64,000 bases of DNA from Anaeromyxobacteraceae bacterium (GCA_047602405.1 JASGHJ010000002.1:1952001-2016000), one strand, 5' to 3'; positions 22,530 through 30,123 are shown, counted from the first letter of the stretch. Notes: generated from the sequence alone by a model not told the origin. Numbers and translations: made by a program.

Positions 22530-23528
22530 GTGCCCACCGCCCGCCGCCGCCCCGGACTCCTCGCGCGCGCCCTCCTGGGCGTGGCGACCGCAGCCGCGCT
22601 CGCCGCGGGCGCGGCCGGCGTCCTCTGGATGGCGCTGCCGGATCCCTCGCCGCTCGCGAGGCACGACCCCGACACGACCGCGCTCATCGAGCAGCGGAAG
22701 GCCGAGGCGAAGCAGAAGAAGCGCCCGTTCCGGGTCCGGCGCACGGTCGTCCCGCTCGAGCGCGTGCCCCCGCACCTCGTCCAGGCGCTCGTCCTCTCCG
22801 AGGACGCGAACTTCTGGACCCACGGCGGCGTCGACCTCCTCGCGATCCAGGAGGCGGCGCAGCACGACCTCAGGAAGGGCCGCTTCGCGCGCGGCGCCTC
22901 GACCCTCACGCAGCAGCTCGCGAAGAACCTCTGGTACGGCACCGAGAAGAGCCTGGGCCGCAAGGCCAAGGAGGCCGTGCTCGCGTGGAAGCTCGAGCGC
23001 GCCCTCTCGAAGAAGCGGATCCTCGCGCTCTACCTCAACGCCGTGGAGTTCGGCGACGGCGTCTTCGGCATCGAGGCGGGCGCGCGCCACCGGTTCGGCG
23101 TCGGCACCCGCGACCTCTCGCCCGCGCAGGCCGTCGTGATGGTCGCGATGCTGCCCGCGCCGCTCCGGGTCGACCTCGCGCACCCGTCCACCTGGCTGCA
23201 GCGGCGGTCGCGCCGGCTCCTCGACCTCATGAAGGTCACCGGGCGCCTCGACGCCGTGAGCTACCGCGTCTCCGCGACCGAGCTCGATTGCATCCTCGCC
23301 GGCCCGCGGCCGGACGACGACCGCGAGGAGCCGCCCGAGGAGGCGCCGCCCGATCTCCCCGTACCGGCGATCGATCCTGCTGCCGGGGTGGGGACCCGCG
23401 GAGCTCCGCTCCGCGGGGAGGGGGCTGCAGAAGCCCCCTCCGAGGATCAGGGCGCGGCCGGCACCGCCGGGCAGGCGGACGCGGCGCCCAGCGAGCAGGG
23501 CGGGCTGGGCTCCGTCTCGCACGAGTAG
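22530..23528 (+). CDS. mtgA: Monofunctional peptidoglycan transglycosylase
   Basis: GT51 motifs EDANFWTHGGVD, GASTLTQQLAKNL, RKAKE, KKRILALYLN; N-terminal TM; start approximate. Confidence 0.88.
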   Translation: MPTARRRPGLLARALLGVATAAALAAGAAGVLWMALPDPSPLARHDPDTTALIEQRKAEAKQKKRPFRVRRTVVPLERVPPHLVQALVLSEDANFWTHGGVDLLAIQEAAQHDLRKGRFARGASTLTQQLAKNLWYGTEKSLGRKAKEAVLAWKLERALSKKRILALYLNAVEFGDGVFGIEAGARHRFGVGTRDLSPAQAVVMVAMLPAPLRVDLAHPSTWLQRRSRRLLDLMKVTGRLDAVSYRVSATELDCILAGPRPDDDREEPPEEAPPDLPVPAIDPAAGVGTRGAPLRGEGAAEAPSEDQGAAGTAGQADAAPSEQGGLGSVSHE

Positions 23529-24400
23529 TTGCCCGGGTCGTCGACGTACGTCAGGCACGCCGCGGCGTCCCAGCACTCGGCCCAGCCGACGGTCGCGAAG
23601 ATCGTGTGGAACGTGATCGCGGCCTTCCCGGCGCCCGCGCCGTCGAAGGACGAGGCGATCTCGAGGTAGTTGACGCCGCTCGGGATGACGTAGACGAACC
23701 CGCCCGTCCCGTCGGCGTACCCCTCGAACCGGTACTCGAAGGGTCTCAGGGCCGTCCGCGACGCCACCTGCATCACCACCTTGCGCGGGTCACCGCTGCG
23801 ATCGTAGGTCGCGTTCAGCGCGCCGCGCGGCGTGGTGGCGTCGTTGATGCCGAGCGTCCACAGCACCTCGAAGTCGATCTCGAGGGTGCCCGTGCCGACC
23901 TTCGCCGAGGGACCGCGGAAGGTGCCGCTGATGAACGGCACGAAGTCCCCCTGCCCCTTCCTGCGCGCCTCGAGCGAGAAGGCGTGCACGACGAGGTCCC
24001 CCTGCGCCGCCCGGACGATCCGCGCGAGGAGCTCGAAGCCGGGGTGGTTCCGGTCGTTCCAGGGCCCCCACACCCGCTCGTCGTCCGTCCGCGTGGTGGG
24101 CTCGAGCGTCCGCACGCGATCGACGAGGTCGAGCACGAAGTCCACGGCCGCGTTGAGCCCGTCGGAGGTCGGCTTCGCCTCGAGCCACAGCGCCGCCGGC
24201 CGCGTGCCGCACGCCGCGAGCGCGCCCGCCTGGGCGCTCGCGGACGCCGGCACCTCGACGCGCAGATCCGCGCGGGTGGGCAGCGCCGCGAGGAAGCGCA
24301 CGTCCTCCTGGGACCAGTTCCCGCAGCCCGCGCCCCAGAGCGCGACGGCTGCGGCGAGCCCGGCGACGGCCGCGGCCCGGAGGCTAGTCACCCAGCGCAT
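23447..24400 (-). CDS. Uncharacterised lipoprotein (paralog of 27358..28287)
   Basis: Signal with lipobox-like WGAGC; shared WGPW, F.P..SG and CW motifs; start overlaps the caspase stop. Confidence 0.7.
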   Translation of the reverse strand: MRWVTSLRAAAVAGLAAAVALWGAGCGNWSQEDVRFLAALPTRADLRVEVPASASAQAGALAACGTRPAALWLEAKPTSDGLNAAVDFVLDLVDRVRTLEPTTRTDDERVWGPWNDRNHPGFELLARIVRAAQGDLVVHAFSLEARRKGQGDFVPFISGTFRGPSAKVGTGTLEIDFEVLWTLGINDATTPRGALNATYDRSGDPRKVVMQVASRTALRPFEYRFEGYADGTGGFVYVIPSGVNYLEIASSFDGAGAGKAAITFHTIFATVGWAECWDAAACLTYVDDPGNYSCETEPSPPCSLGAASACPAVPAAP

Positions 24401-25997
24401 ATTCCACCCCGACGAGCCCCTCGACGAACCCGAGGCTCTGCTGCGAATCCACGTTGTAGAAGAGCCACGCGACCCGCGCGCGCGCGACCGCGGAGAGGCG
24501 CGGCGTCATCCGCCACCCCACCGCGCCGACGAGCCCGGGCGTGAGCGTGAAGAAGTGCTGTCGCGGGAGCGCGTCCTCGGCCGCGAAGCGCCGCGCGAGG
24601 TAGGTCGCCCCGAGCCTCAGGCCCGCCTGCGCGCCGAGGGCACCCCGGGTCCACTCCTTCCAGAGCCCGACGCCGGCGCCCACGAGCGCGAAGTCGAACG
24701 GCACCGAGACGCCGCCGCCGAGGCCGACCGCGCCCCTCCCGCCGCCGACCGCCGCGTCGAGCCCCCACACGAGCCCGTGGCCGAGGTCGTCGCGCGCCGC
24801 GAGCTCGAAGCCGCCGAGCGCCGCGGGCGGGAAGAGCCCGGTCTTGCCCTTGCCCTCGAAGAAGCGCTGCCCGCCGAGGCCGAGGAGCAGCGCGAACCGC
24901 GCGCCGCCGTAACCCTTCTGCGGATCCCGGTCGAGCGGCACGCGGTCCATCCGCGCGTCGTCCACCGGCACCGGCCCGCCCGAGACCTCGAGCCGCGCCA
25001 CGAGCAGCCCGCTCTCGTCCGGGAGCCGCTTCTTCACAAGGTACTTCCCGGGCGCGAGCGCGATGCGCCGCTCCGCGCCGGCCGCCTTCGCGACCTCCGC
25101 GACCGCGCGGCCCGCGCCGTCGAGCACCACGTAGAGCCCCTCCGTCGCGGCCGGCAGCACGACGCCGCCCCTCGCCGGCTCGAGCTCGGTGAGGACGACG
25201 TCGCCCGCGCCGCCGAGGTCGTACAGGAAGACCGGGTGCTGCACGCCCGCGGCCGAGGACGCGGTCGCCCCGACGGTGCGCGCGTAGGCGTAGGCGTAAG
25301 CCTCGGCGAGCGTGACGAGGCCGTCGCCGGAGGTGTCGGCGCCGCCCAGGAGCCCCGAGGCGAGGTGGTGGGTGAAGTAGCTCGCGCCGATCGCGTCGGA
25401 CTCCTGCGAGTCCTCGTCGGCCGACGACGAGGCCACGAGCACGAGGCCGCGCGGCCCGCCGGGCTGGGCGGTCTTCACGTCGAAGGTCGGCGCCGGGCGG
25501 ACCCCCTTCGCACGGACGATGGCGCCCGAGCGGCAGGAGTCGAGGAGGCCGATGCGCACGTCGGCGGGCGAGGACGCGAGCGCCTCGCGGAGCTCGTCGA
25601 GGGGGATGGCGCCCGTCCCGAGCCGGAGCGCGCCGTCGCGCGCGTGACCCGAGTAGTAGACGACGAGCACGGTGCGCTCGCCCGCGGCGGAGGCCCGGCC
25701 CGCGGCCTGGGAGAGCTCGGCGAGGGCGCGGCGGAACGCGGGGGCGCCCGCGGAGAGGAGAAGGCGCGCGTCCTCGGGCCGGACGCCGCCGACCCCGGTG
25801 AGGATGCCGTGGATGCGCCGGGCGTCGCGCTCGGCGTAGCGCAGGCGGACCGCGCCCGGCCCGCCGTCCGGCTCGCCCGCGACGAGCGCGAAGCGCCGGC
25901 CGGCCCCGCCATTCGCGGGCGCGGCGTGCGCCGGCGCCGCCAGGAGCCCCGCCGCGGCGAGGCCGAGCGCGAGCGCGACGGCGCGGGCGGACCTCAT
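24384..25997 (-). CDS. Exported caspase-like (peptidase C14) protein with probable C-terminal beta-barrel
   Basis: Signal peptide; RRFALVAG, LRYAERDA, His YYSGHA, Cys LDSCRSG, SYFTHHL..GL.G.AD..GDG.VTL.EAY; amphipathic beta C-terminus ending VGVEYALGD. Confidence 0.85.
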   Translation of the reverse strand: MRSARAVALALGLAAAGLLAAPAHAAPANGGAGRRFALVAGEPDGGPGAVRLRYAERDARRIHGILTGVGGVRPEDARLLLSAGAPAFRRALAELSQAAGRASAAGERTVLVVYYSGHARDGALRLGTGAIPLDELREALASSPADVRIGLLDSCRSGAIVRAKGVRPAPTFDVKTAQPGGPRGLVLVASSSADEDSQESDAIGASYFTHHLASGLLGGADTSGDGLVTLAEAYAYAYARTVGATASSAAGVQHPVFLYDLGGAGDVVLTELEPARGGVVLPAATEGLYVVLDGAGRAVAEVAKAAGAERRIALAPGKYLVKKRLPDESGLLVARLEVSGGPVPVDDARMDRVPLDRDPQKGYGGARFALLLGLGGQRFFEGKGKTGLFPPAALGGFELAARDDLGHGLVWGLDAAVGGGRGAVGLGGGVSVPFDFALVGAGVGLWKEWTRGALGAQAGLRLGATYLARRFAAEDALPRQHFFTLTPGLVGAVGWRMTPRLSAVARARVAWLFYNVDSQQSLGFVEGLVGVEYALGD

Positions 25998-26740
25998 CGC
26001 CGCCCCCGGGTGAGCGGCACGACCAGCACCTCGGCCTCGCGGTCGGGGGCCGCCGCGCCGACGCCGGAGGCCCCGAGGCGGCTCACCAGCGCCGCGCCGT
26101 CGATCGGGCGGTCGTCGAGCACCACCACGAGCTCGCCGTCGCCCTCGCCCGTCCACTCGAACGCGCCGGGCAAGGGGCCCTTCACGGCGGGGCCGGCGTA
26201 GACGAGGGCCGGGCCGTCGCGGTCGACGAGCGCGACCGCGGCGTGCGTGTGGCCGGCGGGGCCGAGCGCGACGCGCAGCGAGGCGCCCGCGGGCACCGGC
26301 TCGCCGGGCGCGAGGGCGCGCGCGCCGGCCGCGGAGGAGACGTGGAGCTCGGCGGTGGCGCCGCCCTTCGTGCGGATCCCGGGGGCCGGGTCGTCCCGGC
26401 GGTCGCGGAGCTCCCGGACGAGCGGCACCGCGACGACGGCCGCGAGGCCGGCGGCGAGCGCGAGCGGCGCGAGGCGGAGCGCGAGGCGCGGCGCGGTGCG
26501 GGGGCGCGGCGCCGGCGCGGCGAGGTGGTCGGCGACGCCGGCCGCGAAGGCGGGGAACGGCAGGGCGCGGGCGAGGTCGACCCGCTCGGCCTCGAGGACC
26601 CGGAGCGTCGCCTGGCAGCGGGCGCAGCCCTCGAGGTGGGCCTCGGCCCGGGTCCGCTCGTCGCCCTGCAGCTCGCCCGCCGCGAGGCGGCGGATGCGCA
26701 TCGCCGAGCAGGGCACCCCGGGGCCACCGAGCGACGTCAT
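25994..26740 (-). CDS. Zinc-finger (zf-HC2) transmembrane anti-sigma factor
   Basis: HLEGCARC (HxxxCxxC), single TM, extracytoplasmic domain; ATGA overlaps with both neighbours. Confidence 0.85.
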   Translation of the reverse strand: MTSLGGPGVPCSAMRIRRLAAGELQGDERTRAEAHLEGCARCQATLRVLEAERVDLARALPFPAFAAGVADHLAAPAPRPRTAPRLALRLAPLALAAGLAAVVAVPLVRELRDRRDDPAPGIRTKGGATAELHVSSAAGARALAPGEPVPAGASLRVALGPAGHTHAAVALVDRDGPALVYAGPAVKGPLPGAFEWTGEGDGELVVVLDDRPIDGAALVSRLGASGVGAAAPDREAEVLVVPLTRGRR

Positions 26741-27348
26741 GGCAGCTCCTCCGGGTCCGCGGGCAGCTCGACGTCGGGCATCGCCGCGGCGAGCGTGGCG
26801 CGTGCGGCGGCGAGGAACTCCTTGAGGCGCTTCCTCACCGTGGGCAGGCTGCGGCCGGTCTCGGCGGCGATCTCGGCCTGCGTCAGCTCGTCCACGAAGT
26901 ACAGCACGGCGACCTCCTGCGCTTCCCCGGGCGCGCTCCTGAGCAGCGCCCGCACGAGCTCCCTCGACTCCGGCTCGATGCCGCGTTCCTTCCGGTCGCG
27001 GGCCATCCGCTCGACCTCGTCCCGCCAGGCCGCCCGCGAGGCCCGGAGCACGTTGAGGCAGTGGTGCGTCGCCGCCCGCATCAGGTAGGCCGTGGGCGAC
27101 GCGGCGGTGACCAGCTCCGCCGTGCCCTTCAGGACCCGCGCGAACACCTCCTGCGTGGCGTCGCGCGCGGCGTCCTCGTCCTTGAGGAGGTACCGGCAGC
27201 GGCCGAACACCATGGCCGCGTGCCGCCGGTACAGGTCCTCGATCAGGTGGCCCGGGCGGGCGGCTTCAGCCGCGCCGGGGCCCGGAGCCCCGGCGGAGGG
27301 GCCGACGTGGTCGGCCTTTCCGCCGGGGATGACCGAGAGCCGGGGCAC
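26737..27348 (-). CDS. ECF RNA polymerase sigma factor
   Basis: Region 2 LYRRH...DATQEVF; region 4 LTQAEIAAETGRSLPTVRKRL. Confidence 0.92.
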   Translation of the reverse strand: MPRLSVIPGGKADHVGPSAGAPGPGAAEAARPGHLIEDLYRRHAAMVFGRCRYLLKDEDAARDATQEVFARVLKGTAELVTAASPTAYLMRAATHHCLNVLRASRAAWRDEVERMARDRKERGIEPESRELVRALLRSAPGEAQEVAVLYFVDELTQAEIAAETGRSLPTVRKRLKEFLAAARATLAAAMPDVELPADPEELP

Positions 27349-27357
27349 CCGTCGACG

Positions 27358-28287
27358 TTACGGCAGCGTGAGCGTCGAGTACACCGGGGTGCTGAAGGGC
27401 GCGCAGGCGTCGTTCGTGCCGATGACGGTGACGGCGTCGACGAGGTAGTACTCGAGCGCGAAGCCGCCCGCGTTGCCGGCCCAGCACTGGCTCGCCGTGT
27501 GCGACGCGCCCGTCTCGACGTACTTCGCGTCGCCGCGGCCGTCGCCGCCGGTCACCCAGCGGGTGGCGAGCGAGAGGTTCTTGTCCGAGCCGACGCCCTG
27601 GAACATGAACTGGAGGTCGCCGCCGGTCGCCGAGGCCTCGAAGTCGTAGGCGATGTCGAGGTACGCCGGGCCGGCCGGGTCGGAGTTCTTCGCGCCGGTG
27701 AAGAGGGCGGTGAGCTTCAGGAACGTGCGGTTGTCGTAGGTGACGGAGAGCTTGCCGTGGTCGTCCTTCGTGGGCTGGACGGCCTTCGAGGCGTCGAGGT
27801 CGAGGACGAAGTCGCCCTGGCCGTGCCGGCCGTCGGCGCCGGGGAAGGCGTGGCCGGAGAGGATCGGCGTGAAGTCGGCCGCCGCGGCCGCGTGGGCGGC
27901 GAGCACGTAGCTGTAGCCGTCACCGTCCCGCTTCACGACCATCCGCCACACGACCTGGCTCGCGTTGTCGGTCCACGGGCCCCAGGTGCACTGGTCGGCG
28001 GTGCACTCGGTCGGCGGGAACGCCGTGATGACCTGGACGAGCGTCAGGATCGCCCAGCTGTTGAGGTTGAAGGTGAGCGCGACGTAGTACGAGTCGAGCG
28101 CGAACTCGGCCGGGATCGTGACGGCGTCCTCGACGGTGAGCGCGCCAGGGTTCGCGGCCTTCGGCGAGCCGACCTGGATGTCGGCCGGCTTCGGCATGGC
28201 GGCGCGGGCCTCTTCCGGGCTGATGTCCTTCTTGGCGCAGGCGCCGAGCAGCGCGGCGGCGGCGAGGATGGCGACGGTCTTCTTCAT
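27358..28287 (-). CDS. Uncharacterised lipoprotein
   Basis: MKKTVAILAAAALLGAC lipobox; first gene of the ECF-caspase operon (9-nt gap to sigma). Confidence 0.8.
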   Translation of the reverse strand: MKKTVAILAAAALLGACAKKDISPEEARAAMPKPADIQVGSPKAANPGALTVEDAVTIPAEFALDSYYVALTFNLNSWAILTLVQVITAFPPTECTADQCTWGPWTDNASQVVWRMVVKRDGDGYSYVLAAHAAAAADFTPILSGHAFPGADGRHGQGDFVLDLDASKAVQPTKDDHGKLSVTYDNRTFLKLTALFTGAKNSDPAGPAYLDIAYDFEASATGGDLQFMFQGVGSDKNLSLATRWVTGGDGRGDAKYVETGASHTASQCWAGNAGGFALEYYLVDAVTVIGTNDACAPFSTPVYSTLTLP

Positions 28288-28466
28288 GGTCAGGCCCTCG
28301 GTCTCTCGTTCCAGGGTGGGCCGGGAGAGTCCGGCCGTTCTCCATGAAGGGACACGGCCGCCCCCCTGGAATGGAAACAGGCTAGAGGCCCTCGGACGGG
28401 GCGTGAAGGGACCGATGTGGGGGGAGGTGGGCGAGGCCATGACCGCGGCGTGCTACGGTCGTCGGC

Positions 28467-28940
28467 ATGGCCGTTCACACTCGGGCGTCGAGAGCCGGAG
28501 TGTTGCTCGCTCCTGCGCTTCTGGCCGCCGCGCTCGTCGCCGCGTGCGGCGCACCCGGTTACCGGTGGGTCGTTCCCGAAGGGTACCAGGGCTGGGTCGA
28601 GATGAAGTGCGGGGTCACCGGAGCGCCGCCGTTGCCGGTCGAGGGCGGCCTGGCAGTGATCGTCGTGCCCCAGGACGGCAAGATCGTCACCTCGTCGCCC
28701 CTGCGGAGTGGTCCGGCGCGGGACGAGGCCCTCGCGCGACGCGGCGACCGACTCGAACCCGTGGCGCTGCCGGTCGGCATCTTCGTGCGCCATGTCTCGG
28801 TGGGACAGCCGAGGGCTGGGAACTACGTCTACGCCTACTTCGGAACCCCTGCTCAGTACCAGGCGGCCCTCAGGGACCTCACAGGCCAGGTCGGTGACCC
28901 GATAGAACCCGGCAACCGCCCGCCCCCGGGGTCGCCCTGA
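28467..28940 (+). CDS. Small hypothetical lipoprotein (DUF6843-like)
   Basis: LVAAC lipobox; VPEGYQGWV...GAPPLP...VPQDG..VTSS pattern. Confidence 0.6.
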   Translation: MAVHTRASRAGVLLAPALLAAALVAACGAPGYRWVVPEGYQGWVEMKCGVTGAPPLPVEGGLAVIVVPQDGKIVTSSPLRSGPARDEALARRGDRLEPVALPVGIFVRHVSVGQPRAGNYVYAYFGTPAQYQAALRDLTGQVGDPIEPGNRPPPGSP

Positions 28941-29192
28941 AGGCGCGCGTGGTGCGCCTCGACCGAGAACGTCAGCCCAATCAAGGTACTATTGGTGAAC
29001 GCTCACCAGGGCTCCAGGCCGGTCCCATCTTGGCGCTCCGGCGTCCCGCGCGCGCGGCGAAGTCACGAATGCGCGGGAAGACTACTCGAAACCCCGGGGG
29101 TTCCTCGCGCCGCGCTCGGCAGGCGCGACCATGGCGCCTGCCGGCGCGCCGGCCGCCCTCGCGGTACGCTCCGCCTCGAGAGGTACGCCCGG

Positions 29193-30123
29193 CTACCGCC
29201 GCGCCTTGAACCACGCGAACGTGCGCGCGAGGCCGTCGGCGATCGAGACCTCGGGGCGCCAGCCGATGGCCTTCGCGGCGAGCGACGGGTCGATGCAGGA
29301 GCGGGCCTGCTCGCCGAGGCGCGCGGGCGCGTGCTCCGGGCGCTGCTCGACGCCCGCCGCGCGCGCGAGGTGCGCGTGCAGGGCGAGCACGTCGGTCTCG
29401 ACGCCGGTGCCGACGTTGAGCGGGCCGTCGTGGCGCCTCTCCGCGGCGAGCAGGTTCGCGCGGGCGACGTCTCCCACGAAGACGTAGTCGCGGGTCTGGC
29501 GGCCGTCGCCGTAGACGGTGCACGGCTTCCCGTCGAGCAGCTTGCCGCAGAAGATCGCGACGACGCCGGCCTCGCCGTGCGGGTCCTGGCGCGGGCCGTA
29601 GACGTTCGCGTAGCGGAGCGCGGCGAAGGGGACCTCGTAGCCGGCGCGGAAGACGCCGAGATACAGCTCGCTCGCGGCCTTGCTCGCGCCGTAGATCGGA
29701 GATCGGCGCCTGGCGCTCGGCCTCGGGGGTGGGGATGGGCGCGCCGTCGCCGTAGGTCGCCCCTCCCGACGAGGCGAAGAGCACGTGCTCGAGCCCGCCC
29801 GCGGTCACCGCGGCCTGCATGAGGTTGAGGAGCCCGCCCACGTTCACGTCGGCGTCGTGGCGCGGGTCGCTCATCGAGCGGCGCACGTCGATCTGCGCGG
29901 CGTGGTGGCAGAGGACCTGCGGGCGCTCCTTCGCCACGATCTCGGCGGCGGCGGCGCTCCGGACGTCGACCGGGTAGAAGCGGGCGCCCGCGGGGACGTT
30001 CTCGCGCTTGCCCGACGAGAGGTCGTCGAGGATCGCGACGTCCCAGCCCGCGGCGAGGAAGGTGTCGGCCACGGTCGAGCCGATGAAGCCGGCGCCGCCG
30101 GTGATGAGGATCCGCCTCGCCAT
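29193..30123 (-). CDS. NAD-dependent epimerase, UDP-glucose 4-epimerase-like (apparent +1 frameshift at ~29698)
   Basis: TGGAGFIGS, HHAAQIDVRRS, ASSGG; after removing one base YGASK, RYANVYGPRQ, QTRDYVFV. Confidence 0.88.

Follow-up and report, generated by a model that had tools for sequence, protein, structure and literature searches.

The locus described here lies in a 64,000-nucleotide (nt) stretch of an Anaeromyxobacteraceae bacterium (GCA_047602405.1 JASGHJ010000002.1:1952001-2016000), hereafter the window, in which all coordinates without a locus handle are counted. Its minus strand carries five co-oriented open reading frames (ORFs) that encode (i) lipoprotein A (27358-28287, 309 residues), which is the first gene after the promoter, (ii) a sigma factor of the extracytoplasmic function (ECF) type (26737-27348, 203 residues), (iii) an anti-sigma factor with a zf-HC2 domain, one transmembrane (TM) helix, and a DUF4384-like ectodomain (25994-26740, 248 residues), (iv) an exported C14 protease, or caspase, assigned by PF00656 and by its fold model (24384-25997, 537 residues), and (v) lipoprotein B, a paralogue of A (23447-24400, 317 residues). 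The genes are joined by one 9-nt gap, two 4-nt ATGA overlaps, and one 17-nt overlap, the last between lipoprotein B and the caspase stop. A sequence-only reading of the window had described five co-oriented, tightly coupled genes, and all of its ORF limits and junctions hold. The unit is interpreted below as a probable envelope switch in which the caspase would cut the anti-sigma factor encoded next to it.

Four families exceed the Pfam cut-off in the operon: Sigma70_r2 (PF04542, E 9.5e-11) and r4_2 (PF08281, E 8.3e-7) in the sigma factor, zf-HC2 (PF13490, E 7.9e-6) in the anti-sigma factor, and Peptidase_C14 in the protease. The sigma factor also scores above the cut-off of TIGR02937, and neither lipoprotein reaches the Pfam cut-off of any family. 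The closest named relatives, at 96% identity, belong to Anaeromyxobacter.

Conservation of the locus and its core

Orthologs were surveyed in the best 80 of 138 confirmed loci, each count being limited to loci long enough to test. All five genes stand in the same order in 58 of the 64 loci that could be tested, which is more than chance, and the lack of conservation that would have spoken against the earlier interpretation is not seen. The anti-sigma factor is present in 73/73 loci, the sigma factor in 71/71, lipoprotein B in 76/76, and lipoprotein A in 60/66, with six absences. Among 14 more distant loci hand-picked from a phylum-wide caspase profile table, sigma factor, anti-sigma factor, caspase, and lipoprotein B follow one another in all 14, and lipoprotein A is seen in seven within the DNA fetched. 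At E up to 0.001, the caspase profile has matches in 260 of the 301 genomes sampled from the phylum, with paralogues and the unpublished genome G163 counted in, and the anti-sigma search yields 3,915 clusters at E up to 1e-30.

The source genome contains six sigma/anti-sigma/caspase triads. The five others (L081-L085, at C1:988710-992171, C2:3025078-3028021, C2:2385190-2387997, C2:956-3803, and C2:2558511-2561293 of G000) occur without this lipoprotein pair and differ in the C-termini of their caspases; four of the five adjoin other predicted lipoproteins. Because these triads stand without the pair, and because lipoprotein A is, to judge from its absences, dispensable, gene content identifies the triad of three genes, not five, as the functional core. 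The "five-gene module" of the earlier reading is thus retained as a conserved gene order and set aside as a functional unit.

Several variants accompany these loci. The predicted lipoproteins that flank the paralogous triads include, as judged by eye, RCC1-like repeats, immunoglobulin-like domains, and others, and one of the five triads has Ser-Ser-His in place of Ser-Gly-His. L048 (59-4449) has a second triad, placed immediately upstream of the module but on the other strand. The module is also found in a record labelled Comamonas (L015), whose lipoprotein A falls with a Myxococcus sequence in the tree; either the name on the record may be mistaken or the module may have been acquired by transfer.

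The C14 protease

The AlphaFold model of the protease (predicted local distance difference test, pLDDT, 85.3) comprises a caspase fold (residues 29-272), a beta-sandwich (278-353), and an eight-stranded barrel (364-535). The caspase fold matches caspase-9 (Z 20.3) and plant metacaspase 4 (Z 19.7), and residues 29-272 of the model align to whole caspase folds, which suggests that a p10-like part, whose presence or absence separates type I metacaspases from orthocaspases, is included. The barrel resembles OmpA (Foldseek E 3.6e-8), OmpW (Z 17.5), and NspA (Z 17.3), bearing out the beta-barrel-like C-terminus noticed earlier, and is predicted to tether the protease to the outer membrane.

In front of the catalytic domain, 78 of 80 orthologues have a hydrophobic stretch at the N-terminus, compared with about 4% of control windows. 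This agrees with the proposed export of the protease, as judged by a hydropathy heuristic rather than SignalP, and speaks against a cytoplasmic caspase. Both ends of OmpA-type barrels lie in the periplasm, and on account of this topology and the signal peptide-like stretch the modelled catalytic domain is most likely periplasmic.

The catalytic dyad, previously described as intact, is formed by H118 (in YYSGHA) and C155 (in DSCRSG); the region between them (25533-25646, minus strand) also holds D153, with D58 upstream. H118 and C155 are invariant in 81/81 aligned orthologues, which argues against an inactive enzyme, as are D58 and D153, the acidic S1-pocket residues, which align with conserved Asp positions of metacaspase-1. 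C14B enzymes use two such Asp residues to cleave after basic residues (PMC6426788). With its caspase fold, its dyad, and both S1-pocket Asp residues, the protease has the features of this group and is predicted from sequence to prefer a basic P1 residue. A candidate calcium site is the EF-hand-like loop D221-E232 (25302-25337, minus strand), whose pattern recurs in 71/81 orthologues and whose D221, D225, and E232 are invariant.

The anti-sigma factor

The anti-sigma factor has the traits of zinc-binding class I anti-sigma factors, namely an N-terminal HxxxCxxC domain (H35, C39, C42), one TM helix (residues 90-108), and a gene that follows that of the ECF sigma factor. Its profile matches ChrR, RsiW, and the N-domain of DdvA. 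The TM helix recurs in 38/38 diverse sequences, and 31 of 64 orthologues match DUF4384. Longer anti-sigma forms with fused domains were also sought; none turned up, and this counts as weak evidence. In P0245, an anti-sigma-like protein of 758 residues, the N-terminus has two repeats that resemble zinc fingers, four DUF4384-like domains are arranged in tandem, and Lys-Gly is absent after the TM helix.

Candidate site-2 proteases are at hand, as the genome contains four PF02163 (M50) matches, two of them strong (best E 1.2e-70). In Myxococcus xanthus, RseP degrades truncated DdvA (PMC11506125).

Lys-Gly sites in the protease and the anti-sigma factor

The two proteins have in common a near-invariant Lys-Gly pair at three candidate cut sites, all on the minus strand. 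In the anti-sigma factor, K125-G126 (26363-26368) lies in the stalk after the TM helix and is the predicted site-1 cut (Lys in 76/76, Gly in 71/76). In the caspase, K164-G165 (25503-25508), nine residues after the catalytic Cys in a disordered loop (pLDDT <50 over 158-182), is the predicted self-activation site, and K361-G362 (24912-24917) is the predicted release site before the barrel; each is found in 81/81 sequences. The background frequency of Lys-Gly in the ORFs of this genome is 0.27% of positions. Self-activation at a basic residue has a precedent in Arg219 of MaOC1 (PMC7475262).

K125 and G126 are the sole invariant columns in 38 diverse anti-sigma factors, a set from which L144, L145, L148 (Lys-Gly), L151 (Lys-Gly), L158 (Arg-Gly), and L157 (neither pair, and no sigma factor or caspase nearby) were left out. 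Across 149 representatives with a mean identity of about 30% (one repeat protein of the 150 obtained was dropped), K125 is kept in 148 and G126 in 145, versus 140, 140, and 135 for the zinc ligands; the search profile contained the motif, which introduces a small bias. K125 is 16 residues from the inner membrane, and in all 38 diverse sequences the loop is found 5-25 residues away from the TM helix. As judged by eye, Lys-Gly is absent at the matching place from six DUF4384 proteins other than anti-sigma factors, one of which has Arg-Gly nearby.

The sites recur beyond the orthologues. All five paralogous triads carry the three basic-Gly sites, the third being [KR]G in 5/5 with one Arg. Among 20 diverse triads, the caspase motif is at Cys+9 in 18, at Cys+13 in one, and Arg-Gly in one; a Fisher test on these rows was set aside because the rows are related. 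In a sister clade of exported caspases (L186-L215, with one unpublished-genome locus left out), Arg replaces Lys at Cys+9 in 29/29 and at the third site in 28/29. The 13 anti-sigma factors adjacent to caspases of this clade have, by eye, eight Arg-Gly, two Arg-Ser, and three Lys-Gly. Many Arg-clade caspases that stand without an adjacent anti-sigma factor occur in Myxococcaceae-level relatives. Together, the shared motif and the Lys/Arg switch suggest that the caspase is the site-1 protease, as far as sequence comparison can indicate.

Conservation of the motif fits binding as well as cutting. The Lys-Gly loop might be a docking element or bait: lodged in the active site of the caspase, it would act as inhibitor or as a tether across the periplasm, with the signal passed by binding or release instead of cleavage. 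Substrate-like loops do serve inhibitors, and PCi inhibits the PCaspase of Haliangium and is also cleaved by it (bioRxiv 2023.06.23.546230). This alternative is unlikely, as the constant placement of the loop near the TM helix is where site-1 cuts expose RseP substrates, and the same motif occupies typical processing positions inside the protease. A complex prediction for caspase residues 26-365 with anti-sigma residues 110-248 scored 0.01, which gives no answer and weighs neither way.

Several observations weigh against cleavage of the anti-sigma factor by the caspase. Lys is kept in 3/13 anti-sigma factors next to Arg-clade caspases, 16 of the 29 Arg-clade caspases have no TM (anti-sigma) gene directly upstream, and the change between Lys and Arg amounts in essence to a single evolutionary event, so that it does not count as a statistical test. 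Lys-Gly also persists in three sigma/anti-sigma pairs without a caspase in the DNA fetched (L134/L161, L137/L162, and L151/L163, the contig of the third being 6 kb); there it could be structural or be served in trans, and the genomes of these pairs do have other caspase matches. The model gives K361 an ordered setting of short turns (pLDDT 81-92) instead of a floppy loop, and a terminal Phe is present on only 10/81 barrels. Finally, a basic-Gly pair follows the catalytic Cys in two unrelated secreted caspases (L166, L170), and the Cys+9 site is therefore not specific to the module. These two (L166:3362-7109 and L170:3075-6001) belong to another subfamily and adjoin DUF4384 proteins that are not anti-sigma factors.

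Promoter and regulon

A candidate bipartite ECF-type promoter, TTTCCA-N15-CGTGTC, lies upstream of lipoprotein A at 28351-28377 on the minus strand, exactly where the sequence-only reading had placed it. The motif TT[TG][CG]NN-N15/16-G[TG]GTC is found in 60 of 61 upstream regions, compared with a mean of 0.79 and a maximum of 3 in shuffles; with a fixed spacer the pattern caught 11/61, and the spacer of 15-16 that caught 60/61 was chosen on these same regions. An independent test comes from the six loci that lack lipoprotein A and were outside the training set: their best promoter site lies 46-248 nt before the sigma gene. By this comparison, the promoter moves to the sigma gene when lipoprotein A is lost.

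The operon's own site has the best matrix score in the genome (28.8), and the next (23.2) is inside a gene. A strict pattern matched only 2/5 close relatives. In five other genomes a strict pattern gives 11 matches, five of them at the module, and the six non-module matches show no convincing shared target. No wider regulon was found by the matrix scan of the genome and the strict pattern in these five, and no sigma-70 promoter or intrinsic terminator was found. From these patterns, the promoter is probably autoregulatory and read by the operon's sigma factor, and the regulon seems to reach hardly beyond the operon itself.

Since the operon is the only clear target of its promoter, the caspase is itself part of the output. 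It could then be a product of sigma activity and not its activator, maturing itself and processing the lipoproteins or external proteins; a general periplasmic protease would cut the anti-sigma factor, or its Lys-Gly would be structural. The caspase-less pairs that keep Lys-Gly and the Arg-clade caspases that often lack an anti-sigma factor fit such an arrangement. The lipoproteins, however, contain no strongly conserved basic-Gly site (the best reaches 33/58 in B, and none exceeds half in A), and the anti-sigma residue tracks the caspase residue in most Arg-clade triads (10/13), which leaves a caspase confined to the output as doubtful as a bait loop.

The lipoproteins

Lipoprotein A has a lipobox Cys at position 17, invariant Cys268 and Cys295, and a model (pLDDT 88.8) that consists of a long helix and an antiparallel beta-meander; the lipobox pattern occurs in 48/50 lipoprotein A sequences. 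Foldseek gives no match at E up to 0.001, and in the Atlas the protein matches only unnamed Myxococcota clusters. A likeness to porins and OspA variants (best Z 9.3-9.7, root-mean-square deviation 4-7) was taken as generic beta-meander likeness and rejected.

Lipoproteins A and B share 26% identity (E 9e-16, profile probability 100), which supports the earlier description of the flanking lipoproteins as paralogous. Across the phylum they fall into two separate lineages (one change, support 97) in a tree made quickly from 84 rows, roughly half of those aligned. The duplication is therefore old, and each copy has probably specialised. Gene position and retention point to B, which is always retained and overlaps the caspase gene, as the likelier input partner; A, dispensable and nearest the promoter, would more likely be the output.

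Copy number varies among relatives. At L079:5446-5775, lipoprotein A has shrunk to a short remnant while the promoter motif persists, 416 nt ahead of the sigma gene, so that the loss of lipoprotein A is apparently in progress. A third lipoprotein copy follows lipoprotein B at L068:5039-5722. A third, distant member of the A/B family (L086, G000:C2:2621146-2623221) is divergently oriented from an ECF sigma factor of another type, with no caspase nearby.

Genomic surroundings

Three neighbours lie next to or near the operon in the window. A small predicted lipoprotein with DUF6843 (E 8.2e-8; 28467-28940, plus strand) diverges from the operon promoter and lies outside the conserved unit as far as examined. 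A monofunctional transglycosylase (PF00912; 22440-23528, plus strand) is convergent with lipoprotein B, and their 3′ ends overlap. An NAD-dependent epimerase-like ORF (28981-30123, minus strand) has, by eye, apparently lost its frame after about residue 140, which suggests a frameshift or sequencing error.

Comparison with known systems

Regulated intramembrane proteolysis removes single-pass anti-sigma factors by a site-1 and then a site-2 cut, as DegS/RseP do for RseA and PrsW/RasP for RsiW. In TonB-dependent cell-surface signalling, an outer-membrane protein starts the signal. The classical site-1 enzymes are serine or metallo/glutamic proteases; they are not known to be encoded as barrel fusions, nor to have a self-release step such as is proposed here.

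Operons that join a metacaspase to a sigma-70 factor were noted in 2012 in Myxococcus xanthus DK1622, Anaeromyxobacter, Haliangium, Sorangium, Ralstonia, and Fibrobacter, with several copies per myxobacterial genome, as here (Asplund-Samuelsson, PMC3501461). The gene sets that the sequence-only reading mentioned for myxobacteria, without a mechanism, have thus been in print since then, and very probably represent the same gene family. The accessible parts of the 2012 account name no anti-sigma factor, barrel, lipoproteins, promoter, or mechanism, and lean to cell death (PMC3501461).

The closest characterised analogues are defence systems. DdvS/DdvA of M. xanthus likewise comprises an ECF sigma factor, a zinc-finger single-pass anti-sigma factor, a periplasmic caspase fold proposed as the site-1 protease, and RseP at site 2 (PMC11506125). 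In DdvA, however, TPR-CHAT is fused into the anti-sigma factor, which controls a defence island and whose self-cleavage was not demonstrated (PMC11506125); the present protease is a separate C14 enzyme on a barrel, and the 248-residue anti-sigma factor has a DUF4384-like ectodomain in place of TPR-CHAT. The type III-E system of clustered regularly interspaced short palindromic repeats (CRISPR) with Csx29, Csx30, and CASP-sigma also uses a caspase-fold protease that cuts the C-terminal part of an anti-sigma factor, its sigma factor autoregulates the locus, and one group of Csx30 C-domains is DUF4384, as in the present anti-sigma factor (PMC10028731, bioRxiv 2022.08.17.504292). It differs in being cytoplasmic and RNA-triggered, in using a CHAT-family protease that cuts after Met, and in needing Cas7-11 (PMC10028731, bioRxiv 2022.08.17.504292). 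The Haliangium type III-B set SAVED-CHAT/PCaspase/PCc-sigma/PCi has a cleavage-activated C14 protease beside a sigma gene in a myxobacterium, but this protease is cytoplasmic, triggered by cyclic triadenylate (cA3), a broad-specificity killer, and cuts the sigma factor itself (bioRxiv 2023.06.23.546230). The caspase systems of Kaur 2020 and 2021, of which one includes an ECF sigma factor, differ from the module in architecture. Among ECF groups, ECF25 anti-sigma factors carry a zinc domain and DUF4384, and ECF216 is confined to Myxococcales, with a zinc-finger TM anti-sigma factor and EF-hands in its context (Casas-Pastor 2021 supplement); both are leads for placing the sigma factor, by description only.

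These analogues raise the prospect that the module is an anti-phage or cell-death system controlling defence genes. OmpA-type barrels can serve as phage receptors. Such a role is nonetheless highly improbable: the five proteins have no PADLOC match, the module has no match in plasmid and phage collections, it occurs at high frequency across the phylum, and no defence regulon emerges from the promoter scans. The 126 flanking ORFs of 20 loci give seven PADLOC matches at 1e-15, five of them generic Ser/Thr kinases, and no Cas match, so that the locus does not have the makings of a type III CRISPR system either.

No published study of the system was found; subscription journals were thinly covered, so a description could have been missed. 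The module is real, widespread, and uncharacterised, and is a probable variant of anti-sigma proteolysis.

Proposed mechanism and significance

The combined evidence favours, with a probability of roughly 0.6, a self-contained and autoregulated envelope switch in which the exported caspase would be the site-1 protease of its own anti-sigma factor. Tethered by its barrel, probably together with lipoprotein B, the zymogen would sit at the periplasmic side of the outer membrane. A cue at the barrel or a lipoprotein, possibly with calcium, would cause it to cut after K164 for activation and after K361 for release. The freed enzyme would then cut the anti-sigma factor after K125 and remove the DUF4384 domain, whereupon an RseP-type protease would cut the TM stub and free the sigma factor. 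The sigma factor would transcribe mainly its own operon in positive autoregulation, lipoprotein A being the first gene and the probable output.

An enzyme of two domains on the outer membrane would not span the width of the periplasm, and one that stayed fixed there could hardly reach a site so close to the inner membrane; it would probably have to be released from its barrel. The outer-membrane-anchored caspase proposed earlier as the site-1 protease is accordingly upheld in its predicted export and barrel anchor, and revised as regards permanent anchoring.

At a little under even odds, the switch would extend to a large myxobacterial family of three-gene units, in which a tethered caspase would sense a surface cue through an exchangeable barrel/lipoprotein pair, free itself, and cut the anti-sigma factor at a clade-matched Lys-Gly or Arg-Gly code. 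Such a family, if real, would represent a third type of signalling across the envelope, and periplasmic C14 proteases would gain their first known part in signalling.

The predicted sites C155, K164, K361, and K125, together with the promoter, make the module testable, and a protease that releases itself, recognises a short code, and has a private promoter could be of use as a synthetic switch. The role of most bacterial caspase homologues has long been open, with cell death as the usual answer; what the module suggests instead is a part in trans-envelope gene regulation.

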